A stretch of 34,394 bases of DNA, from IMG/VR virus record IMGVR_UViG_2531839446_000008. One strand, 5' to 3'. This document shows positions 6,789 to 19,226 of the stretch, piece after piece. How positions within the stretch are numbered: position 1 is the first letter of the stretch; each line of letters opens with the position of its first letter. Source of the stretch: a virus. Its lineage: Duplodnaviria; Heunggongvirae; Uroviricota; Caudoviricetes. The notes below the pieces were generated by a model that saw only the letters and a program-made list of their open reading frames with translations, made no database searches and was not told the origin of the DNA. A program made the position numbers and the translations under genes.

Positions 6789-7766
6789 TTACATTCCTCC
6801 CAAGGGATTAAACCTCACCGCATCCTGCAGGTAATCCGGCGCAAGATGGGCATAAATCATCGTTGTCTGAATCTTTGCGTGCCCCAGAATTTTCTGGAGC
6901 GTCAGAATATTACCGCCGTTCATCATGAAATGACTGGCGAAGGTGTGGCGCAGCGCATGAACAGCCTGGCCGTCAGGAACATCAGGTGCGACCGTTTTGA
7001 TGACATCGCGAACCAATGGATAATCCAGCGTTGGAAACACTAGTTTCCCGCCCCGTTTTTTGATCTTTTCAAACAGATTTTCGGAGATCGGGACAGTGCG
7101 GTTTTTACTGTTCTTCGTTTTTGAAAAAGTGATTCGACAATGAAGAACACGGCGCTGCTCCAGTGCCGCTACCTCGCCCCATCGCGCCCCGGTCGACAGA
7201 AGGATTTCGACAGCCAGCCGTTCATCGGGATTTTCAGCCAGTGCATCCAGCAACTGAACACATTCAGACTTACTCAGGTATCCCATTTCGCGCTCGTTAA
7301 CCTTCATTCCTTTAAGGCCTTGAACGGGGTTATCGTTAAGAAAATGGCCGGATGAGATGAGTGCGGTAAACATCGCGCTTAACGCCCCAATCTCTCGATT
7401 TATGGTGCTGGGCTGTATCCCCTGCTCTATCCTGGACACACGTAGCTCGGTGAGCATCGTTGTATTAAGTTTATGCACGCACGGGTCATCCATTGCCTCA
7501 CTCAAGCGCAGCAATTTAAGGCGCGTGTTATGCCCTGACTTCATTAGCTGGCCGTGGTATTTCCACCACAAGTCAATAAGCACTGACAGAGGACGGCGAT
7601 CAATAGAGTTTCCTTTCCACTCATTGTTATGCTGTTGCGCCAGCACCCACCGCTCATATAAAACTGCATCCGATTTCGTTTTAAATTTTTTACGAATGCG
7701 TTTGCCTTTACGCCCCTCCGGGCGCATGTCAAGAAGATACCCTCCCGGAATTGATTTTATGCTCAT
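6789..7766 (-). CDS. int: Phage integrase (tyrosine recombinase), P2 Int-like
   Basis: C-terminal catalytic region contains HALRHTFASHF and the LGHAKIQTTMIYAHL motif with the catalytic Tyr. Start set at the internal MSIKS Met, because the longer 375-aa ORF would overlap the repressor gene. Confidence 0.85.
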   Translation of the reverse strand: MSIKSIPGGYLLDMRPEGRKGKRIRKKFKTKSDAVLYERWVLAQQHNNEWKGNSIDRRPLSVLIDLWWKYHGQLMKSGHNTRLKLLRLSEAMDDPCVHKLNTTMLTELRVSRIEQGIQPSTINREIGALSAMFTALISSGHFLNDNPVQGLKGMKVNEREMGYLSKSECVQLLDALAENPDERLAVEILLSTGARWGEVAALEQRRVLHCRITFSKTKNSKNRTVPISENLFEKIKKRGGKLVFPTLDYPLVRDVIKTVAPDVPDGQAVHALRHTFASHFMMNGGNILTLQKILGHAKIQTTMIYAHLAPDYLQDAVRFNPLGGM

Positions 7767-7815
7767 TCGTGAAACCCCAGCGTTACAAGACCACCATGCC
7801 CCCAGCGTTCCATGA

Positions 7816-8127
7816 TTAGCCGGGCTGTGTACCAGTCTTGCGGGATTTTTGAGAAGACGATGTGTTTTCTGGCCCATCAGGGGAGAGAGAGGGACTGATC
7901 TGCCCAGCAGCCTCATTTGTTTTTCCCGTCATAAGCCATATAGTGTATTTTTCGAAATCCTTAGAATTAATTACGCGATCAACAACGCTTAAACCAACCT
8001 CTCTTTTACCGCTCTCATAATTCTTTATAGTTCCGAGATTTATCCCAGTAACATCTGCAAACTCAGCTTGAGTTAACCCTTCACTTTTCCGTATCTCTTT
8101 CAGTTTTTTTTCGTACCCACTTGACAT
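7816..8127 (-). CDS. C: P2 C-type immunity repressor (HTH)
   Basis: 103-aa ORF whose HTH (LTQAEFADVTGINLGTIKNYESG) and following YTIWLMTG motif resemble P2 repressor C as I recall it; divergent from the early operon. Confidence 0.75.
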   Translation of the reverse strand: MSSGYEKKLKEIRKSEGLTQAEFADVTGINLGTIKNYESGKREVGLSVVDRVINSKDFEKYTIWLMTGKTNEAAGQISPSLSPDGPENTSSSQKSRKTGTQPG

Positions 8128-9802: not shown

Positions 9803-10065
9803 CCATTCTGGACTACATCACTACACATCCGGGTTGTAGCGGCGGAGAAATCGCCGCAGCACTGAACACCCCAACCACAGCTATTAATGCTGAGTTACGC
9901 CGACTTTGGCGCAGCGGCTTAGTCATCAGAACAAACCGCAGCACAGGTGGTCGCGCTCGCAAAACTGGAGGCCAGGCTTCTTACCACGCAAACCCGATGC
10001 CGTTCGGGTGTAGCAATCCACTTACTCACATGTTTAACCAGCTACTGAAGGAAGCCAGAACATGA
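9799..10065 (+). CDS. Putative winged-helix DNA-binding protein
   Basis: 88-aa ORF with a MarR/wHTH-like segment (GCSGGEIAAALNTPTTAINAELRRLWRSGLV); translationally coupled on both sides. Confidence 0.4.
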   Translation: MTILDYITTHPGCSGGEIAAALNTPTTAINAELRRLWRSGLVIRTNRSTGGRARKTGGQASYHANPMPFGCSNPLTHMFNQLLKEART

Positions 10066-10361
10066 GCACCATCAACCACCAGAAGCTACGCGAACTGGCA
10101 TTTGCCCTGCAACGAATGGCAACGCCTCAAAAATTACTGGCATTTCGCGCAATGCTCTCGCCGTCTGCTGTGCTGGCACTGCTGGATCAGCTGGAGCACG
10201 CCAAAACCACGGCCCCTGCCATTCGCCTGACGCTCCATCATGAAATCGCTGATTTCTGCGCAACGCTGGGAGCACCTGGCGAACCGGAAACGCCGGAAGC
10301 AATGCAGCAAGAGCTGCTGCAACGCATTGACAAGGTTTTTGATTTTTTTCTGAACCAGTAA
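10062..10361 (+). CDS. Hypothetical early-operon protein
   Basis: 99-aa ORF; its start overlaps the upstream stop. Confidence 0.4.
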   Translation: MSTINHQKLRELAFALQRMATPQKLLAFRAMLSPSAVLALLDQLEHAKTTAPAIRLTLHHEIADFCATLGAPGEPETPEAMQQELLQRIDKVFDFFLNQ

Positions 10362-10382
10362 GAAACCAGAACATGCACACAC

Positions 10383-10640
10383 AAAAAAACCGCTTGCCAT
10401 GCCGCAATCGGTCAGGTTACATTTCCGCTGCACCTCATAAAACGGGTGCCGGGATTCTCAACCCGATACAGAGCAAAGCGCATAACCGCGCAAGCGGTTT
10501 TTTGTGCGTACTGTATTGCCACGTCTTTTTCGCGTCAGAATTATGGCGGGGCGTACGGGGCCGACTTCGGTCGGGCCGGATTCTTTGCTCTCCGGTGTTG
10601 AGAACCCTGTACGTCTCGCCACCCCGAGATTCTCAACTCT
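10383..10640 (+). ncRNA. Highly structured intergenic region (candidate terminator/attenuator or small RNA)
   Basis: aaaaaaaccgcttgc (about 10383) pairs with gcaagcggtttttt (about 10490); ggccgac-ttcg-gtcgggcc hairpin near 10560; nested long-range complements gattctcaac/gttgagaac and gagcaaag/ctttgctc. No protein-coding ORF. Confidence 0.35.
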
Positions 10641-10682
10641 GGATGGTGAGTTATTTCTATCACCGAGCAAAGAGGCCACACC

Positions 10683-10913
10683 ATGGCAAACCGCAAACAA
10701 CAGCGCGCATACGCTGCGCGTCGTCACATCCAGACTGAAATCAACCGTAGACTTTTCCGCGCATCACGCGTCGCGCAAATCATGCACATCAATATGCTGC
10801 ATGAGCGCAGCCACGCGCTATCGAACATCTATTCCGCCTCTGTTTTCAGCTATCTGGCGGATGATCTGCACGAGCTTCAACAGCTCATCCAGCAGCAAAA
10901 CAAACTCCATTAA
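10683..10913 (+). CDS. Hypothetical protein
   Basis: 76-aa basic ORF downstream of the structured region. Confidence 0.35.
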   Translation: MANRKQQRAYAARRHIQTEINRRLFRASRVAQIMHINMLHERSHALSNIYSASVFSYLADDLHELQQLIQQQNKLH

Positions 10914-10985
10914 TTCCTGTTCCGGGCCTTTCCTGCACCTTGCGGCGGGAGGCCTTCGCACATCTGTAGTAAAGAGAATTGCAGC

Positions 10986-11375
10986 ATGATTGACGCTCAT
11001 GACTTCACAAGATGGGTGCGCACACAGGACACCCGTCTGGCTCCCGTTCTTCAGGGATTATTTGATCTCTACATCCGTGGTCGTGACAACAGAGCACGCA
11101 CCACAAAACCAGAGAATGCAGACACCCTTTATTTCACAGTAGACGACTGCTACCGCGTGGACTTCACACCACACGGGCTGGCGTTGCACTGCCTGACACC
11201 ACACGGCGAATCACTACTGGCGTATTACGACTCCCCGGCCTCCGTATTTGCGGCAATGCTGGCGCATCGCACTGCTGGCGGGTGTGCCTCGCTGAGTGAA
11301 TACACCGCTGAATTTAACCGCCTTTCCACCCTCTTCTCGCAGGAGTGGCAGCGCGTGACGGGATACCAGCCATGA
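10986..11375 (+). CDS. Hypothetical protein immediately upstream of gpA
   Basis: 129-aa ORF; its stop overlaps the gpA start (ATGA). Confidence 0.4.
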   Translation: MIDAHDFTRWVRTQDTRLAPVLQGLFDLYIRGRDNRARTTKPENADTLYFTVDDCYRVDFTPHGLALHCLTPHGESLLAYYDSPASVFAAMLAHRTAGGCASLSEYTAEFNRLSTLFSQEWQRVTGYQP

Positions 11376-14212
11376 GTGAGTTTGCATGGAGCTGGAATGA
11401 ACCACGGCCAGCCATTGATCCAGCCAGATTTACGGAGCACAGGCAGGAAACTGAAACCGACCTGCAACGCGCCATCCGTTACTACCTTGAGGCGGACAAA
11501 AGGGCACAGAAAGAACAGGAAGCGAAGGAAGAAGCCTTTTTCGCACAATCCGCCATGGGTAAAAAACTCATGGCATCCCTTGAGGAAGCCGGACAGCGTG
11601 AAAAGCTGGCACAGAGCATCATCAGTAAGCGCCGGGCAACAGAACAAGACCCGGTAGCCCGTGCCTTTGCCACACTGAAGGCGCTTCCCGTTTATCTGCG
11701 AGAACCTCTGAGCCGCCACCTCTCTTTCCTGCGCAAGAAGCAGGAAGCCGATCGTCAGAAAGGCAAAAAGAGCTGGCAGGCGGAACGCTACGCGCGCGGA
11801 ACCCTGCGCAAAATATTCGAACGTCTGGACCGCACCGACCACCGCTGGCTGACACCGGGTTATCGCTCCCTTGCCGGACGCGAACGCCTGGACGATTTGC
11901 TTTACCTGCCGCAGCTCAACAAACACCAGATACAGACGCTGGCCACCATGACGGCGGCGATGTTCAGCAGCACCTTCGAAAAACTCTGCGATGGCTTTGG
12001 CGCGACTGATGGCGAACTGACCATGGATGTAACGCTGAAGGCGTATCAGATGCTGGCCCGCATGGCGTTACACCTGCACGCCATGCCTCCACATTATGAC
12101 GCACTGACAACAGACAAAGACCGGAGGAACGAACCGGACACGGAGCTGCTGCCGGGCGCAATCCTTCGCCTGACCTGTGCGGAATGGTGGAAACGCAAAC
12201 TGTGGCTGTTACGTTGCGAGTGGAGAGAAGAACAACTCCGCGCCGCCTGTCTGGTTTCCAGAAAAACATCACCCTATCTGAGCCAGGACGCGTTAAGCGA
12301 GTTTCGCGCACAGCGCGAGAAAACACGCGATTTCCTGAAAAGTTTCATGCTGGAAAATGAAGACGGGTTCACGATTGATCTCGAGACAGTGTATTACGCG
12401 GGAGTAAGTAACCCGGTTCACCGTAAGGCAGAAATGATGGCCACCATGAAGGGACTGGAACTTCTGGCCGAAGCCCGTGGCGACAGAGCTGTGTTTCTGA
12501 CTGTCACCTGCCCGTCAAAATACCACGCCACAACAGAGAACGGTCATCCGAACCCCAAATGGAACGGGGCCACCATGCGCGACTCCAGCGATTACCTGGT
12601 TAACACGTTTTTTGCGGCGGTCCGCAAGAAACTGAACCGCGACGGCCTGCGCTGGTATGGCATCCGCACGGTGGAGCCTCACCATGACGGCACTGTGCAC
12701 TGGCATATGATGGTCTTTGCTCATCCGGAAGAAATCGACAGCATCGTGGCCATCACCCGCGATATTGCCATTCAGGAAGACCGCCACGAGCTGGGCAATG
12801 ATATTACTCCGCGCTTTAAGGCGGAGTATGTCGACGGCTCAAAAGGCACGCCAACCAGCTACATCGCCACCTACATCGGAAAGAACCTGGACAGCCGCGC
12901 CGTGGATGGTATCGACCCGAAAACGGGCAAGCCACGCGTTGACCACGAAACCGGAAAATCAATGGCCGAGAGCGTGGAGCGCGCCATCGGCTGGGCGCGC
13001 CTTCACCGGGTCCGCCAGTTCCAGTTCTTTGGCATCCCCTCCCGTCAGGTGTGGCGTGAACTGCGCCGCCTTGCCAGCCAGATGGCACGCAACCCGGAAG
13101 GCCCGCAACGACTGAAGGATGACGCAATGGATGCAGTGCTCGCTGCCGCTGATGCCGGGTGTTTTGCCTCCTACATTGAAAAACAGGGCGGCGTACTTGT
13201 TCCACGCAAAGACTACCTGATTCGCACCGCCTACGACCTCGCAGATGAGCTGAACGATTACGGCGAACAGAGCGTACAGATTTACGGGATCTGGTCACCA
13301 CTCATCGGGGAGTCTTCCCGTGTGTGCACACATCCGGATAACTGGAAGCTGGTAAGACGTAAACCGGAAGCGGAAGACAGCGCCCGCGAAAATGGTTTTG
13401 ACCTTCAGGGCGGCCCTGCCGCCCCTTGGACTCGTGGCAATAACTGTCCCCGTGTACAGGAAACGGACAACAACGGGACAGAACAGCCGGAAGAACGGCC
13501 AGCACCGTGGCCGCAGCTCCCTGACGGCGTTGATGTGGATGAATGGATGCGCTCACTGAAACGGCACGAACGCCGGGCGCTGATGCGTTCGCTTCGTGAC
13601 AAACAGGCAAAAAACAGCAGTGATGAAATGCAGAGCTGGACACAGAGCCGCAAACAGCAGCGGCCTTTGCCTGATAACCACGAATTACTCGCTAAAGAAT
13701 GGCGGGAGTCTGCTGAATCTCTCGGCCTGCATATCGGTGAACAACAGATGCAGCACCTGTTACGGGGCGGCAGTCTGTACGTTGACGGCAGCATCATTGC
13801 ACCGCAGGGATTTGAAATTGTACGCAAACCGGATACCCGCCCGGACAGCCGAATCACGCAGCTCTGGCAGCGCCTGAGCCGTAATCATGGCGTAAGCAGC
13901 ACGGAGATCCGCCATAACCCGGTCGCCAGCTATCTGACACAGCTGGGGGCATCAGACCCTGAAGCCGCCGCACGCCTGGCATCCACACTTCAGCAGGACC
14001 AGAACACCATGAAAACACCCGTTACCGTGCTTTCTGACATGCTGCGCGCCATCCGCGACGCAGAGCACGCACAGAGAATCAGTGAAACCACTGAACGCGC
14101 CCGCCGCAAAGCAGACCTGCTGCGGGGTGGCCTGACCAGTGGAAACAAAAAACAGACAGAAACGGGACTCACGAATCCCGTAAATGAGCAAAAAACGCGC
14201 AGCGATATATGA
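11372..14212 (+). CDS. A: Rolling-circle replication initiator/endonuclease, P2 gpA-like
   Basis: HUH motif (VHWHMMVF) and Tyr-containing region typical of P2 A-family initiators; about 946 aa from the ATG at 11372, longer than I recall P2 gpA to be. Confidence 0.8.
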   Translation: MSEFAWSWNEPRPAIDPARFTEHRQETETDLQRAIRYYLEADKRAQKEQEAKEEAFFAQSAMGKKLMASLEEAGQREKLAQSIISKRRATEQDPVARAFATLKALPVYLREPLSRHLSFLRKKQEADRQKGKKSWQAERYARGTLRKIFERLDRTDHRWLTPGYRSLAGRERLDDLLYLPQLNKHQIQTLATMTAAMFSSTFEKLCDGFGATDGELTMDVTLKAYQMLARMALHLHAMPPHYDALTTDKDRRNEPDTELLPGAILRLTCAEWWKRKLWLLRCEWREEQLRAACLVSRKTSPYLSQDALSEFRAQREKTRDFLKSFMLENEDGFTIDLETVYYAGVSNPVHRKAEMMATMKGLELLAEARGDRAVFLTVTCPSKYHATTENGHPNPKWNGATMRDSSDYLVNTFFAAVRKKLNRDGLRWYGIRTVEPHHDGTVHWHMMVFAHPEEIDSIVAITRDIAIQEDRHELGNDITPRFKAEYVDGSKGTPTSYIATYIGKNLDSRAVDGIDPKTGKPRVDHETGKSMAESVERAIGWARLHRVRQFQFFGIPSRQVWRELRRLASQMARNPEGPQRLKDDAMDAVLAAADAGCFASYIEKQGGVLVPRKDYLIRTAYDLADELNDYGEQSVQIYGIWSPLIGESSRVCTHPDNWKLVRRKPEAEDSARENGFDLQGGPAAPWTRGNNCPRVQETDNNGTEQPEERPAPWPQLPDGVDVDEWMRSLKRHERRALMRSLRDKQAKNSSDEMQSWTQSRKQQRPLPDNHELLAKEWRESAESLGLHIGEQQMQHLLRGGSLYVDGSIIAPQGFEIVRKPDTRPDSRITQLWQRLSRNHGVSSTEIRHNPVASYLTQLGASDPEAAARLASTLQQDQNTMKTPVTVLSDMLRAIRDAEHAQRISETTERARRKADLLRGGLTSGNKKQTETGLTNPVNEQKTRSDI

Positions 14213-14288: not shown

Positions 14289-15248
14289 ATGAAAATTTGT
14301 ATCGACGACGGCTCCACCAACATCAAGCTGGCATGGACTGAGAACGGCGAACGCCGCAACGCCATCAGCCCGAACAGCTTCAAGTCGGAATGGTCTGCGC
14401 CGTTCGGTGGCACGCAGCCCGCGAACTACATGCTTGATGGCGTGCGCTATGGTTTTGATCCGGTCAGCGATCGCTTTGTCCAGACGACCGACACGCAATA
14501 CCAATACAGCGATGTGAATGTCATTGCCATTCATCACGCGCTGGTCAAATCAGGCATCACACCACAGGAGGTGGATGTGGTTGTCACCCTGCCACTGAGC
14601 GAGTATTTCGACACAAACGCACAGCCGGACATGGCCAACATCAACCGCAAAAAAGCGAACGTTATGCGCCCGGTGGAGTACCAGAACGGCGAAGCATTCA
14701 CTATCCGTAACGTGCGGGTTATGCCTGAATCCATTCCGGCTGGCTTTAAAGCACTGGCTGACATGAGTCCGTTTGAATCCCTGCTGATTGTGGATTTGGG
14801 CGGAACCACGCTGGATGTGGCAAAGGTTCAGGGGCAACTGGCAGGTATCAGCCAGGTGTTTTGCGATCCACACGTAGGCGTTTCTCTGATGGCCGATGCC
14901 GTGCTGTCGGTGATGGCCACTAACGGTATGCGCACCAGTCACCACATCGCCAATACCATTATCGAACATCGCTATGATGAAGCCTGGCTGCGCCAGCACA
15001 TCCACAATGACGCGCATTACGACAGCCTGATGGCGGTTATTCGTGAAAAGGAGGAAACACTGAAACAACGCGTGATCCGCGCGCTGGCGGTTTTTTCGGG
15101 TTACGGGCGGGTGATGGTTGTCGGTGGAGGGGCGGAGATTGTGGCACCCGCTATCCGCGAAGCCTGCGGAGTTAATGCGACTTTCATCGCGGACGGGGTG
15201 CCACAGTTTGCTCTGGTTAATGGGCTGTACGCAATGGACAAGGAGTAA
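14289..15248 (+). CDS. parM: Actin-like segregation ATPase ParM (StbA family)
   Basis: 319 aa; N-terminus MKICIDDGSTNIKLAW and internal motifs (VMPESIPAG, DLGGTTLD, VMVVGGGAE) closely parallel plasmid R1 ParM as I recall it. Confidence 0.85.
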   Translation: MKICIDDGSTNIKLAWTENGERRNAISPNSFKSEWSAPFGGTQPANYMLDGVRYGFDPVSDRFVQTTDTQYQYSDVNVIAIHHALVKSGITPQEVDVVVTLPLSEYFDTNAQPDMANINRKKANVMRPVEYQNGEAFTIRNVRVMPESIPAGFKALADMSPFESLLIVDLGGTTLDVAKVQGQLAGISQVFCDPHVGVSLMADAVLSVMATNGMRTSHHIANTIIEHRYDEAWLRQHIHNDAHYDSLMAVIREKEETLKQRVIRALAVFSGYGRVMVVGGGAEIVAPAIREACGVNATFIADGVPQFALVNGLYAMDKE

Positions 15249-15252
15249 ACCA

Positions 15253-15564
15253 ATGACGACTCCAACCAGACGGATAAGTTTCTATCTGAAGCCCACCGCC
15301 GTCAAGAACGAAGGAGAAGCATGCGCCTGGCTGGACAGCCTTACACCAGAAGCCCGCAAAAGCGGCCAACGCGTGGCTTTTCTGGCCGGGCTGGCACTTC
15401 TGAAAATGAATCCGGCAGAGGCTTACCGACTGGCTGCATGGGCTGATGATGAGGTGTTATCAGTGACACAAACCAAGACAGAACGCCCCGCGTCACAGCC
15501 AGTATCAACCGCACAGATAACCAGTCAGATGGCCGGAAATATCCGGGCGTTATTTCCTGAATAA
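15253..15564 (+). CDS. parR: ParR-like centromere-binding adaptor
   Basis: 103 aa from the ATG at 15253; the segment ISFYLKPTAV...AWLDSLTPEARKSGQRVAFLAGLALL parallels R1 ParR. The 15118 ORF is an out-of-context 5' extension overlapping parM. Confidence 0.7.
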   Translation: MTTPTRRISFYLKPTAVKNEGEACAWLDSLTPEARKSGQRVAFLAGLALLKMNPAEAYRLAAWADDEVLSVTQTKTERPASQPVSTAQITSQMAGNIRALFPE

Positions 15565-15848
15565 CATCAGGGCGTATTCGCCCTGCCACCAATCCCATAA
15601 CATAAAGAACGGGGTGCAAATCACTATACACCCCGTTCCAATACAAACCATCAGAAGATCTACACATCTTTCTCAAATGGCCAAGTAATCGAGCTGGTTC
15701 AGGAATAAGCATGCTGCCAACACAAGTGAAGGAGATAAAACTGTAGAACTGATCAATCGTTGGAAACAAGTATTGACAGTATGTTCGAGTAACCCAACTG
15801 GATAGATTTTATGCTGATTATCCATACAGTAAAAAAGTAAGGATACTC

Positions 15849-15877
15849 TTTGAATTACGCCAGCAAGAGTGGTAACA
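15849..15877 (+). promoter_or_regulatory. Putative sigma70 promoter for the AAA-S8 operon
   Basis: TTGAAT - 17 bp - TAACAT about 65 bp upstream of the ATG at 15943, in an AT-rich spacer. Confidence 0.3.
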
Positions 15878-15942
15878 TTAGTCAATGATTTTCATTAATG
15901 TAGTTACCAGCTTACACAAGCTGATGTTTTATTGGGGGTTTT

Positions 15943-17025
15943 ATGGTAAACGTGAGGGAGGATGAACTTTTCAAACTCATCGAGCAAGGCATCAAAGGCA
16001 ACGCAAATGCATTTACACTCCTATGCAGAAAGATGATTAACAACATCCGTAAAAATGATGAGGCTTTAGCTTCTAAGCTGGCTTCGTTAGTTGCTGAGGG
16101 AACAGTATTACGTGGGGCATCTAGTAAGGCTCCTATGCCTGTGGATGGAGACTCCAGACGAAACCTTTTGCAGGAAACATCTGTCAACGCAATTGTTGAA
16201 GAACCTGTATGGAATACGGATATCTCAAAGAAGCTGGAGTCAATTGTTAACGAAAGAGAGAATGCGGTTTCTTTGTTCAAAGCTGGTCTTGAACCTGTGA
16301 AGACGGTTTTACTTTCTGGCCCGCCAGGCGTAGGCAAAACAATGTCCGCACATTGGCTTGCTGCAAAGTTAAATTTACCTCTTTTAACATTGGATCTCTC
16401 ATCTGTAATGAGTTCTCTTTTGGGAAAAACAGGTAATAATATTAAATCCGTTATGGATTATGCCAAAGAGAAACCATGTGTCCTTTTGCTTGATGAATTT
16501 GATGCTGTTGCAAAAAGACGTGATGATGACAGGGACGTTGGAGAATTAAAACGTTTAGTTACTGTACTCCTACAGACCATAGATGAGTGGCCAGCGACCT
16601 CGCTTCTTGTTGCTGCGACTAATCACCCTGATATCTTAGATCCGGCTGTTTGGCGTCGATTTGAGCACATCCTTAAATTTAATATGCCATCAGTAGAACT
16701 GATAGATAGATATTTAGTCAATCATAATATTGAACCTGAACTATCTAAAAAACTTGCACCATTATTAGATGGCATGTCCTTTGCCATCATTAACCGTATT
16801 TTGAATTTCTCCAAAAAGAATGAGGTACTTAGAAATATTCCATTTGAAAGCTCATTAATAGAAGCCGTAATTACGGAGAGGGTTTCATTGGATGAGTTTA
16901 GCGATAATGATCTCAATATAATTAAATATCATTTTGACGGTTTTTCAAATAGGAAGATAGCTGAATTAGTTGGTGTTTCACATCCAACAATCGCGAATAA
17001 ATTACAAAAGTGGGGGATTAAATGA
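15943..17025 (+). CDS. Classic-clade AAA+ ATPase with C-terminal HTH
   Basis: Walker A (GPPGVGKT), Walker B (LLLDEFD), sensor/Arg-finger region (ATNHPDILDPAVWRRF); C-terminal HTH-like tail (NRKIAELVGVSHPTIANKLQKW). AT-rich. Confidence 0.8.
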   Translation: MVNVREDELFKLIEQGIKGNANAFTLLCRKMINNIRKNDEALASKLASLVAEGTVLRGASSKAPMPVDGDSRRNLLQETSVNAIVEEPVWNTDISKKLESIVNERENAVSLFKAGLEPVKTVLLSGPPGVGKTMSAHWLAAKLNLPLLTLDLSSVMSSLLGKTGNNIKSVMDYAKEKPCVLLLDEFDAVAKRRDDDRDVGELKRLVTVLLQTIDEWPATSLLVAATNHPDILDPAVWRRFEHILKFNMPSVELIDRYLVNHNIEPELSKKLAPLLDGMSFAIINRILNFSKKNEVLRNIPFESSLIEAVITERVSLDEFSDNDLNIIKYHFDGFSNRKIAELVGVSHPTIANKLQKWGIK

Positions 17026-19226
17026 TGGAAAGGAACTTACTTTTAGGTAACGGTCATGTTCTGACAAAAAAGGAACCTTTGCCTAAAGGAAGGGATGGTA
17101 AGCGCTATCCCTATACTCTTGAAGAAGTAAGGGAGCATTTAAACCCAGAGATTGATACTTTACTCTCACGCTTTCGCAGTTTGGATGATGCGGCTAAGCC
17201 AAGGGGGGAGAGTGTATTCAATTTAACTTTACACCCAGCGTTTTTGGGTAAAAGCTACTTTCCGGAAGGATTGCTTAGAGCGACAGGTTTACGGGATGTC
17301 GGCAGCCGTCAGGTAATCATTCGCCCACGGAAAGCGGCACGTCAGTGCGATCAGAATAAGGACTTAGTAACGGCGCAACTGTTTGTTAGCGGTGATGATG
17401 ATGCCGTTATAAGATTTAAGGAAATTTTAAATTCCCCTACAGCTCCGAAGGGCGTACAAAAGGATTTGATCGAAATTGAAAGTGTTAGCTTTTTTGAAGG
17501 AAAAGAGAGAGCACGCAATTTTGAGCATGCGAAAAGTGATTTGATAAAATTTGAAGTGGTTCTTCATGCTGGGGTTGAAGACGATGATATCGTTAAAGCC
17601 TATATTAGCTATGCGGCACAATATGATGTCTCTGTTGATTACAAAAGTAGAATCCAAGTTGGTGGGCTGACTTTCATCGTTGCACACGCGCGACCTGAAG
17701 ATATGAAAAAAACACTCGATTTTTCATTAATCCGCGTTGTGCGGCCGATGCCGTCTCTCAGGTGTACTCAGCCGAACATTGTCAGAAAGTTATCTAATAT
17801 AGTTACACCGGAGCTCCCTAATTCTAAAGCTGTTCTTGAATCCGAACGTATTGCCATTTTTGATGGTGGCTTGGGGACAGCTGACTTGAGTAATTGGGTT
17901 ACGGAATACGTGTATCCAGACACCAAAGAAACAAGCGGATTATTATTGCAGCACGGTAATGAAGTGACATCCACTTTCTTATTCGGACGTGTCGAGGAAA
18001 ATGCACCTTCTTTTAAAAGACCGTTTATGAATGTAGATCATTATAGAGTTCTTTCACCGACATCAGGTGACAATGGCAATTGGGATTTATTTGATGTCCT
18101 TAAGAAAATACAGTCCGTTCTTGATAGTGGTGACTATAAGTTCGCTAATCTAAGTATTGGTCCTCATCTTCCAATTGGTGATGATGAGGTTCATGTATGG
18201 ACTGCTGTTTTAGACCAAATCTGTGCTAAGCATGGGATATTACTTACTGTTGCTGTTGGGAATGATGGCAATGAGGACGGTGATGCAGCGAGAATACAAC
18301 CTCCTTCCGATATGGTAAACGCGCTAGCGATTGGTGCTGCTGATCGTAGCGGTGAAAAATGGGGGCGGGCACCATATAGCTGTATTGGGCCAGGCAGAAG
18401 CCCCGGATTCGTTAAACCTGATGGTGTTATTTTTGGTGGAAGCGACGACGAGCCTTTTTACACTTACAACCCTCTGCTTGGTTCTATAGTTGGAGTTCAA
18501 GGAACCAGTTATGCCTCTCCATTAGCATTGAGAACGGCCGCTGGAGTTGCGGCTCTATCAGGAACTCCATTGAACACCATTGCATTGAAAGCGTTGCTTG
18601 TTCATCATGCTGAAACATCAAGAAAATATTCGCGTGAACATATCGGTTGGGGACGGTTTAGTGAGGATCCTAACGTTTTAATCGATTGTCCAAATGATAC
18701 TGCTACAGTAATTTACTATGGTTCATTAGCAAAAAATAAATATTTAAGGGCACCGATCCCATTCCCTGATGTTCCCTTTGACGAAGCATTTGAGCTTACC
18801 GCTACTTTATGCATTCAAACCCCAGTAGATCCTGAACATTCAGTAAACTATACAAGGGCCGGTATGCAGGTAACTTTCCGCCCAAGATTCGGCCTTGACG
18901 ATACCGATACAGATGATTTCTTTGGTCAAAAAAGCCAGTATAAGACTGAAAGGGAGTGTAGGAGTGAAGGTCATAAGTGGGAAACTTGTTTGCACAGAAG
19001 CAAAAAGTTCAGTGCTGATACATTATTAAGCGATCCAGTTTTTGATATACGGTATCATGCCCGAGATTCTTCGCGCCATGTTAAGGGAGTTTCAGCCCCT
19101 GATATGCAATATGCGATGGTAATAAGCGTAAGGGTAAAAGACTTTGATTTATATAATGTTATTCGCCAGCGATATACAATTCTGAATCCTATTCAACTGC
19201 GCACACAAATTTCTCTCGACACGTAA
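17022..19226 (+). CDS. Large S8 (subtilisin-like) serine peptidase, no signal peptide
   Basis: 734 aa; Asp (IAIFDGG), His (QHGNEVT) and Ser (GTSYASP) motifs in subtilase order; about 270 aa N-terminal and about 200 aa C-terminal extra regions; start overlaps the ATPase stop (ATGA). Confidence 0.8.
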   Translation: MMERNLLLGNGHVLTKKEPLPKGRDGKRYPYTLEEVREHLNPEIDTLLSRFRSLDDAAKPRGESVFNLTLHPAFLGKSYFPEGLLRATGLRDVGSRQVIIRPRKAARQCDQNKDLVTAQLFVSGDDDAVIRFKEILNSPTAPKGVQKDLIEIESVSFFEGKERARNFEHAKSDLIKFEVVLHAGVEDDDIVKAYISYAAQYDVSVDYKSRIQVGGLTFIVAHARPEDMKKTLDFSLIRVVRPMPSLRCTQPNIVRKLSNIVTPELPNSKAVLESERIAIFDGGLGTADLSNWVTEYVYPDTKETSGLLLQHGNEVTSTFLFGRVEENAPSFKRPFMNVDHYRVLSPTSGDNGNWDLFDVLKKIQSVLDSGDYKFANLSIGPHLPIGDDEVHVWTAVLDQICAKHGILLTVAVGNDGNEDGDAARIQPPSDMVNALAIGAADRSGEKWGRAPYSCIGPGRSPGFVKPDGVIFGGSDDEPFYTYNPLLGSIVGVQGTSYASPLALRTAAGVAALSGTPLNTIALKALLVHHAETSRKYSREHIGWGRFSEDPNVLIDCPNDTATVIYYGSLAKNKYLRAPIPFPDVPFDEAFELTATLCIQTPVDPEHSVNYTRAGMQVTFRPRFGLDDTDTDDFFGQKSQYKTERECRSEGHKWETCLHRSKKFSADTLLSDPVFDIRYHARDSSRHVKGVSAPDMQYAMVISVRVKDFDLYNVIRQRYTILNPIQLRTQISLDT

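Follow-up and report, generated by a model that had tools for sequence, protein, structure and literature searches.

The window, by which we mean the whole 34,394-nucleotide stretch of Caudoviricetes virus DNA that was analyzed (IMGVR_UViG_2531839446_000008), carries a P2-type prophage that is P88-like (Xuanwuvirus, Peduoviridae). Between the stop codon of an ORF at 10062-10361 and an ATG at 10683 lies a non-coding gap of 321 nt, and this gap and its borders hold an RNA cassette. The cassette is followed in order by a homologue of the P4 derepression protein, an ORF of 129 amino acids and the replication gene A, and this downstream gene order is identical in P88 and in every related locus. The relevant features are as follows.

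6789-7916, minus strand: integrase
7816-8127, minus strand: repressor, 37% identical to the P2 C protein over its full length
Between the repressor and the RNA cassette: a cox-like gene and early-operon accessory genes
10377-10397, plus strand: 5' arm of a long stem, with core AAAAAACCGCTTGC at 10384-10397, upstream of the predicted IsrK start and overlapping the -35 element
10394-10423, plus strand: sigma-70-like isrK promoter predicted in silico, TTGCCA-18 nt-TACATT, with a predicted start near 10430
10430-10504, plus strand: IsrK-family RNA, a full-length match to Rfam RF01394 (gathering score 50)
10452-10462, plus strand: target a1, GGATTCTCAAC, in IsrK hairpin 2 (loop and 3' side); pairs with a'
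10470-10478, plus strand: target b1, AGAGCAAAG, in the single-stranded part of IsrK; pairs with the b' loop of C4
10484-10503, plus strand: intrinsic terminator of IsrK, AACCGC-GCAA-GCGGTT and a U-run, doubling as 3' arm of the long stem
10539-10626, plus strand: C4-family antisense RNA, Rfam RF01695 (gathering score 45)
10582-10591, plus strand: b' recognition loop of C4, CUUUGCUCU, in the 12-nt loop of its second hairpin
10597-10607, plus strand: a' recognition segment of C4, GUUGAGAA, in the junction strand and the start of the 3' closing strand
10630-10643, plus strand: target a2, with core TTCTCAAC at 10630-10637, downstream of C4
10665-10675, plus strand: target b2, GAGCAAAGA at 10665-10673, overlapping the Shine-Dalgarno sequence AGAGG
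10683-10913, plus strand: 76-aa derepression protein homologue of the P4 epsilon family, Pfam PF25738 (32 bits, cutoff 27)
10986-14212, plus strand: downstream genes of the same transcription unit, the 129-aa ORF and then the replication initiator gene A

Between the 76-aa protein and P4 epsilon there is 33% identity (E = 5e-9), and the protein's homologue is labelled 'derepression protein' in the P88 and NCBI records. From this similarity we presume that it is the regulated anti-repressor. Gene A corresponds to the mechanical ORF 11345-14212, which matches Pfam Phage_GPA with 436 bits. P88 itself is inducible by mitomycin C (PMC5285337). The RNAs described below are not mentioned in the papers on P88 and PhiSM, and phage and RefSeq records label the cassette 'hypothetical protein' or 'ash family protein'. 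We found the cassette in 1178 of 5426 complete E. coli genomes.

A scan of the whole window against Rfam returned exactly two matches above the curated thresholds, isrK with 57.5 bits and C4 with 78.5 bits, both within the region singled out by the original prediction (10383-10640). That prediction, made from the letters alone, had pictured a single nested cis-acting structure; what lies there instead is two separate RNA genes of known families. The region folds far more stably than shuffled controls, with z = -5.9 for a 316-nt segment and z = -4.2 for a 136-nt segment, no dinucleotide-shuffled sequence being as stable. A search for tRNA and tmRNA genes found none.

The IsrK-family RNA is laid out as two 5' hairpins, a single-stranded stretch and the intrinsic terminator. 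The promoter-like site ends 6 nt ahead of the Rfam model match, and its position is in register with the stronger TTGAC-type promoters found at the corresponding loci of Stx phages, ST64B, N15 and a Yersinia phage. A promoter-like site of its own and a Rho-independent terminator, both predicted in silico, delimit a short IsrK RNA. The terminator stem was 100% paired and invariant in an alignment of 18 variants, while its loop base at 10492 varied between A, C and T. In its middle part IsrK can pair with the adjoining downstream RNA, beyond which lies the anti-repressor gene, as in Gifsy-1. The separate Rfam model for such upstream targets, c4-a1b1 (RF03163), scored only 15.9 bits at 10417-10469, below its gathering score of 46.7; elsewhere the same model passes in Gifsy-1 (48.1) and nearly does so in P4 (44.1). 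Although they fall outside this model, the a1 and b1 sites look functional. Hfq binding by IsrK and its activation of a long isoform in trans are known from experiments in Salmonella only (PMC4825925).

The C4 match begins after a spacer of 34 nt and covers the full model, positions 1-87. It comprises a 17-bp closing stem, a hairpin capped by UUCG, and a second hairpin whose 12-nt loop bears b'. The GC-rich hairpin that had been picked out from the letters, CCGAC-UUCG-GUCGG at 10561-10574, is the first hairpin of this model. In the 18 variants the closing stem was 99.7% paired over its 17 bp with three pairs changed on both sides, and two pairs of the UUCG hairpin were also changed on both sides; the C4 structure as a whole was 95.8% paired with five such pairs. 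A promoter-like site at 10516-10544 was considered as a dedicated C4 promoter and rejected: its -35 element is not conserved (TTGCCA or TCGCCA), and the predicted start would land within the C4 closing stem. In P1 and P4 the mature C4 or CI RNA is processed by RNase P from a longer transcript and acts in trans.

Two segments of C4 are complementary to two segments of IsrK. The a1 site pairs with a' (GTTGAGAACCC, 10597-10607), and the b1 site pairs with b' (CTTTGCTCT, 10583-10591). The same C4 segments match a second set of targets downstream, a2 and b2, which the original prediction had missed. The b2 site overlaps the Shine-Dalgarno sequence (AGAGG, 10671-10675, 8 nt ahead of the ATG at 10683) by a small extent of about 3 nt, and the small icd-like leader ORF that P1, P4 and Stx phages have ahead of the anti-repressor gene, after b2, is absent here. 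In the entire 34-kb window these were the only two target sets in which a and b segments are paired. The distal complements that had been noticed from the letters are therefore present in the places where they were seen, as contacts between an antisense RNA and its targets and not as nested helices: a single nested fold is ruled out for them, since pairing of a' and b' with one target set excludes their pairing with the other at the same time.

To build a comparative set we collected 85 P88-like loci encoding close relatives of the 76-aa protein, which gave 45 distinct regions of 330 nt; a search of genome contigs had yielded only 3 loci. Extra loci with more divergent derepression proteins (74-85% protein identity) were added. 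The scaffold of the RNAs is nearly invariant, and substitutions are confined almost entirely to six patches, namely a1, b1, b', a', a2 and b2. The loci with divergent proteins showed the same nearly invariant scaffold, with new alleles in the patches and zero variation in the long stem. We distinguished 6 alleles of a and 13 of b, which reassort freely, and complementarity was kept in every one of the 45 distinct sequences. Between non-cognate alleles pairing is on average poor (contiguous runs of about 2.5-3.6). One of the other allele sets reads TTCGCAGC/CTACACAAG.

The covariation of the patches was quantified in the 18-variant alignment against shuffled controls. For a1:a' and b1:b' taken together, 96.1% of cells were paired as against 67.7% in the shuffles, with 79 both-side changes; none of 500 shuffles was as good, and registers slid out of place were only 25-53% paired. 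For a2:a' and b2:b' the figures were 94.1% as against 66.9%, with 77 both-side changes and again 0/500 shuffles as good. The b1:b' helix by itself had 100% of its cells paired, with both sides changed in 7 of its 9 pairs, while the outermost a pair was unpaired in 12 of the 18 variants. The intramolecular structure of the Rfam models, for comparison, was 95.8% paired as against 94.5% when shuffled, with 13 both-side cells and 0/500 shuffles as good. The covariance across related prophages by which the original prediction had proposed to judge the paired segments is hence present: the a and b segments are conserved as pairs through compensatory changes. Such matched diversification of alleles is the pattern expected of a trans-acting determinant of immunity specificity.

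Tandem isrK and C4 matches above the Rfam thresholds were also found in Stx phages, ST64B, the Yersinia phage, N15 and ASU11, where genes of the anti-repressor type follow. The c4 and c4-a1b1 motifs are both listed by Weinberg et al. 2010 (PMC2864571). The closest experimental parallel is provided by Gifsy-1 (isrK-orf45(STnc1160)-anrP-isrJ), in which an IsrK with its own promoter and a leaky terminator is followed after 25-34 nt by a C4-family RNA and then by an anti-repressor, and in which the middle of IsrK is likewise complementary to the downstream RNA. We noted that the Gifsy-1 segment studied by experiment under the name 'orf45/STnc1160' is this C4-family RNA, with the AnrP anti-repressor next to it. 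In Gifsy-1 the short IsrK acts in trans on a read-through isoform, whereupon the downstream ORF and the anti-repressor are translated and the prophage is induced (Hershko-Shalev et al. 2016, PMC4825925). The locus described here differs in encoding a 76-aa protein of the P4-epsilon type rather than one of the AnrP type, in having neither isrJ nor antQ, and in lying inside a P2-type early operon ahead of gene A, with an extra arm complementary to the terminator.

The immunity region of P4, with the order seqA, CI RNA/seqB, seqC, epsilon, orf151 and alpha, offers a second parallel. Its seqA region matches isrK with 60.8 bits and its CI RNA matches C4 with 74.9 bits; the C4 of the window is likewise flanked by complementary sites resembling seqA and seqC, the a2/b2-type sites end at a ribosome-binding site in both, and epsilon and then a replication gene lie downstream. 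According to the summary given in PMC4825925, the P4 CI RNA pairs with seqA and seqC, and transcription ends prematurely before the replication genes. P4 differs in having a 65-codon ORF between b2 and epsilon, an isrK-C4 spacer of 107 nt as against 34 nt, and the primase-helicase alpha in the place of gpA, which belongs to another family; the 129-aa ORF of the window is unrelated to orf151, and P4 lacks an upstream complement of the terminator. Moreover, P4 epsilon acts on the repressor of the helper phage, whereas the phage described here carries its own P2 C-type repressor.

The immI region of P1 and P7 (c4-icd-ant) is comparable by description. The RF01695 family was built around its c4, it has two recognition segments with target pairs on both sides and a downstream target at a ribosome-binding site, and it combines control of an anti-repressor with allelic heteroimmunity. 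The a1/b1/a2/b2 layout of P1 was reportedly worked out by Citron and Schuster in 1990. In the account in PMC12197685, c4 of P1 and P7 blocks ant at the ribosome-binding site and underlies their heteroimmunity. The window differs from these phages in having no leader gene of the icd type, an anti-repressor of a different family, and upstream targets placed in a separately terminated IsrK. In N15 the tandem of isrK and C4 precedes icd and ant genes, and a small processed RNA is described as controlling its anti-immunity operon immA (Ravin et al. 1999, as cited in PMC4488713); N15 is set apart by being a linear plasmid-prophage, by other downstream genes and by its lack of the 5' arm.

The family membership of both RNAs, the complementarities and their covariation, the promoter-like site, the terminator and the gene order together lead us to propose, with a probability of about 80%, that the region is an antisense-RNA immunity cassette of the C4/CI type in the early operon of a P88-like (P2-type) prophage. 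The processing of C4, the translational block, the termination, the use of IsrK as a decoy and the choice of target by the epsilon-like protein are modelled in what follows on the homologous systems. In the lysogen, the early promoter would be silenced by the C repressor, while the weak promoter at 10394-10423 would give rise to IsrK, with most transcripts ending at the IsrK terminator. Some transcripts would read through and supply C4, processed out of them as in P1 and P4. The b' and a' segments of C4 would then pair with a2 and b2 on the mRNA just 5' of the epsilon-like derepression gene, whose translation would be blocked because b2 overlaps its ribosome-binding site, and the untranslated transcript would probably be terminated ahead of gene A. 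The same pairing on the RNA of an incoming phage of the matching allele class would confer immunity to superinfection. The a1 and b1 sites of IsrK would serve as decoy targets, so that a rise in IsrK, or in early transcripts bearing it, would titrate C4; we suggest that targets could exceed C4 because each read-through transcript has two target sets for each C4. With C4 titrated, the anti-repressor would be made, the P2 C-type repressor inactivated and lytic growth entered. P4 epsilon is known to bind P2 C.

Two other accounts of the region as a whole were weighed against this cassette. One is that the gap encodes protein, as the databases have it: in near-identical E. coli prophages RefSeq has the region spanned by a CDS for a 205-aa 'ash family protein', and the P88 record has a hypothetical CDS on the minus strand at the gap. 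The original prediction had seen no convincing ORF there, and we agree, in that only mechanical ORFs span the gap and none of them has a Pfam match, including to the Ash family (PF10554), which we discarded as a coding candidate. The frames are not conserved across close relatives, being broken by T6 versus T7 at 10498-10503 and by other indels of 1-2 nt even between near-identical sequences, and the variation tracks RNA pairing rather than codons. Furthermore, it is the CI RNA gene itself that encodes the part of the old 'cI protein' of P4 matching Pfam Phage_ASH, and a coding function for the gap, on either strand, can hardly be credited. The other account, that of the original prediction, would make the entire region one cis-acting leader or attenuator working by alternative intramolecular folds and without any trans-acting RNA. 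In the minimum free energy fold of the unprocessed read-through transcript, the two C4 segments are indeed bound in cis to a2 and b2, with the Shine-Dalgarno sequence partly covered, and the long isoform of Gifsy-1 adopts an inactive cis-structure (PMC4825925). RNAcofold gave a binding energy of about 0 for C4 with IsrK or with a2/b2, a value that bears on neither account, since its nested-only model excludes contacts between loop and target while C4 is folded. Against the cis-only account, an internal promoter-like site and a terminator delimit IsrK as a separate RNA, both families act in trans elsewhere (c4 of P1/P7, CI of P4, IsrK of Gifsy-1), and the many matched allele sets fit trans-acting immunity, whereas a pure cis leader would be under no pressure to diversify. 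We hence regard the cis-only account as very unlikely. Of the three roles that had been suggested at the outset, small regulatory RNAs and the gating of downstream genes agree with the antisense cassette, while nothing supports a protein-binding structure.

The long stem seen in the original prediction is real, a perfect 14-nt inverted repeat, AAAAAACCGCTTGC at 10384-10397 and GCAAGCGGTTTTTT at 10490-10503 with 92 nt between, for which we estimate a chance expectation of about 4e-4 in a 450-nt region (1e5 position pairs x 4^-14). It extends to about 18 positions, CACAAAAAAACCGCTTGC versus GC(A)AGCGGTTTTTT(T)GTG. Its 3' arm is the intrinsic terminator of IsrK, and its 5' arm would be contained in early-operon transcripts only, because it lies upstream of the predicted IsrK start. 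Every P88-like locus retains the 5' arm, whichever of four upstream gene contexts precedes it, while an upstream complement of the terminator of at least 7 nt was found in none of the Stx phages, ST64B, N15, the Yersinia phage, ASU11 or P4. No compensatory change was detected at any position of the stem among loci of the P88 lineage. Positions 10395 and 10492 form a standard pair in the window and in a few of its near-identical relatives, but 13 of 14 representatives have T-C there, a mismatch explained by the place of 10492 as an unconstrained base in the terminator loop. The A-run carries an unpaired C (A-to-C) in three variants; the count in alignment A2 was taken without row L083.

Equilibrium folding of the window sequence placed transcripts beginning at the IsrK start in the terminator hairpin (P about 0.9). 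For those beginning at 10340 or 10300 the terminator had P of at most 0.02 and the long stem P 0.97-1.0, even if the transcript ended at 10498, ahead of the U-run. The relatives, P88 included, behaved differently: there the long stem dominated only with the U-run free and not at the decision point, the arm being partly sequestered in local pairs until then. In the window itself, local pairing engages most of the 5' arm until the terminator has been transcribed. A local hairpin of the arm at 10389-10412 was considered and set aside, as it is not conserved on the plus strand, where G-to-A at 10410 disrupts it in most relatives.

The long stem may be a conditional antiterminator for early-operon transcripts, a post-transcriptional processing stem, an UP-element and -35 sequence that mirrors the terminator by coincidence, or a minus-strand terminator. 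The most that we would say for any of these is a tentative leaning to the arm being a by-product with no role as RNA, its A-run serving as an UP-like element, its TTGC as part of the weak isrK -35, or the whole as one half of a minus-strand terminator. The complementarity between the arms would on this view stem from an inverted terminator copy rather than from selection for a helix. The arm does overlap the -35 element, with its A-run at about -47 to -41 relative to the predicted IsrK start, a location that matches the positions of UP elements. Conservation without covariation would follow from such a role, as would the restriction of the perfect 14-mer to the subgroup of the window, 10492 being a free terminator loop base. 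A candidate minus-strand terminator, ACCGATTGC-GGCATG-GCAAGCGGT followed by T7, has the arm as its 3' half; the common G-to-A at 10410 keeps a G-U pair on the minus strand only, and there is a weak minus-strand Rfam match resembling an sRNA terminator (Hrs13, E = 0.27). This account leaves aside that seven further positions besides the A-run and T-run (CAC...CCGC versus GCGG...GTG) are complementary in nearly all relatives, that no minus-strand promoter-like site occurs within 9900-11500, and that distant isrK promoters do without an A-run. It is possible, though doubtful, that the arm makes termination depend on the promoter of origin: in transcripts from the early promoter Pe it would capture the 3' half of the terminator and allow read-through into the epsilon-like gene and gene A, while transcripts from the isrK promoter would stop. 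The position of the arm upstream of the IsrK start, its conservation despite the differing upstream contexts and the opposite folding preferences of the two kinds of window transcript are in keeping with this, as is its restriction to the P2-type lineage, whose essential gene A stands behind the terminator, and its absence from the lambdoid, N15 and P4 loci. Against it, the changes observed in the stem break pairs (10395/10492 and the A-run) and none compensates; as long as the U-run is missing, the long stem is not dominant in the relatives, P88 among them; the arm is mostly sequestered in the window before the terminator exists; and a nearby hairpin nucleates more quickly than a stem that has to close a loop of 92 nt. 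Furthermore, a dedicated antiterminator may be unnecessary, because the P2 early operon tolerates an annotated putative internal terminator after gene B. Distinctly less probable, in our view, is that RNase III cuts the duplex of about 18-20 bp flanking IsrK in early-operon transcripts, freeing a fragment that contains IsrK and parting the upstream mRNA from the C4/epsilon/A mRNA. With the U-run included, 15-18 pairs and flanking pairs form with P 0.6-1.0 in nearly all relatives and contexts examined (one P88 construct, with P 0.14, is the exception), the duplex energies range from -27 to -33 kcal/mol, and the geometry resembles that of the stems flanking rRNAs; this argument is purely structural, and covariation is lacking here too.

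The elements of the proposed antisense cassette are thus members of RNA families already known and curated, and the type of switch is known too. This instance is unannotated or misannotated in public records and lies in a P2-type phage beside a homologue of P4 epsilon; the 5' arm of the long stem is the only piece that is possibly new. Current understanding is not overturned, the mechanism being drawn from P1, P4, N15 and Gifsy-1. Recognition of two RNA genes corrects the records and flags a protein family that is probably spurious. The 6 x 13 matched alleles constitute a natural series of orthogonal antisense/target pairs, which could be useful for studies of heteroimmunity between co-resident prophages or as parts for synthetic regulation. 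We also consider, as a rather unlikely extension, that the IsrK-C4 pair has been rewired in P88-like phages into a gate for their own induction and replication, with the 5' arm making the terminator dependent on the start site. If this were true, the epsilon-type anti-repressor would target the phage's own P2 C-type repressor and gene A would be controlled through polarity, while early transcripts would read through the terminator or be processed, a device undescribed at other isrK/C4 loci. More generally, the cassette suggests that P2-like phages of the helper type share with the satellite P4 the logic of RNA-based immunity coupled to an anti-repressor of the epsilon type.

The cassette, comprising isrK and the C4 antisense RNA gene ahead of the derepression gene for a P4 epsilon homologue, is present in 1178 of the 5426 complete Escherichia coli genomes when window 10380-10690 is used as the query, with up to four copies per genome. 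The identities of these E. coli copies to the window fall into two bands, one of at least 99% and the other of 80-90%, which reflect allele classes. A P88-like module was also observed on a contig assigned to the Gram-positive 'Vagococcus sp. WN89Y' (NZ_JBQPOM010000071.1), where the derepression protein is 93% identical to that of the window; this occurrence is probably an assembly contamination rather than an indication of a real Vagococcus host.

Within the IsrK terminator, the U-run (10498-10503) has six residues in the window as against seven in almost all relatives, and the loop position 10492 is occupied by A rather than the C seen in most of them. Because of these two differences, the terminator and the long stem to which it contributes the 3' arm both depart a little from the family norm. 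The 5' arm of this stem forms, on the minus strand, a hairpin resembling a terminator, ACCGATTGC-GGCATG-GCAAGCGGT, followed by T7 (window 10383-10412). A G-to-A change at 10410, common among the relatives, retains pairing (as G-U) on the minus strand only. A minus-strand Rfam match to the sRNA Hrs13 is weak and non-significant (E = 0.27), and a search within window 9900-11500 found no minus-strand promoter near the 5' arm.

In one related locus (IMGVR_UViG_2582580934_000004), the second hairpin of C4 carries an internal 18-nt duplication, resulting in two tandem b' recognition loops of different alleles: CTTTGCTCT, which is that of the window, and CTTGTGTAG. The targets flanking this C4 match CTTGTGTAG only. 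The double-loop form could have arisen as an intermediate of recombination, or could represent a C4 of dual specificity.

Downstream, gene A, the replication gene, is separated from the portal gene by a P2-type variable hotspot (window 14289-19226) with three genes:
14289-15248, ParM/StbA-like actin ATPase
15943-17025, IetA, AAA ATPase, anti-phage defence pair with IetS
17022-19226, IetS, subtilase, anti-phage defence pair with IetA

Several lambdoid phage records have an 'antirepressor' or 'Sb41' CDS whose annotated start lies upstream of or within the isrK/C4 genes (L088, 841-1992; L089, 847-2004; L092, 1146-1808); these starts are probable start-codon over-extensions across the RNA genes. 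In RefSeq, a 205-aa 'ash family protein' CDS spans isrK, C4 and the derepression gene, the last of these out of frame. The regions concerned, with that of the old 'cI protein' of P4, are:
window, 10373-10989
related locus L100, 1494-2111
satellite phage P4, 8168-8584

In P4, the Pfam Phage_ASH match covers residues 22-85 of the old 'cI protein', and the segment encoding this part, 8521-8330, is the same that specifies the CI RNA and seqC. Therefore, at least part of the Phage_ASH family seems to be the translation of an RNA gene.
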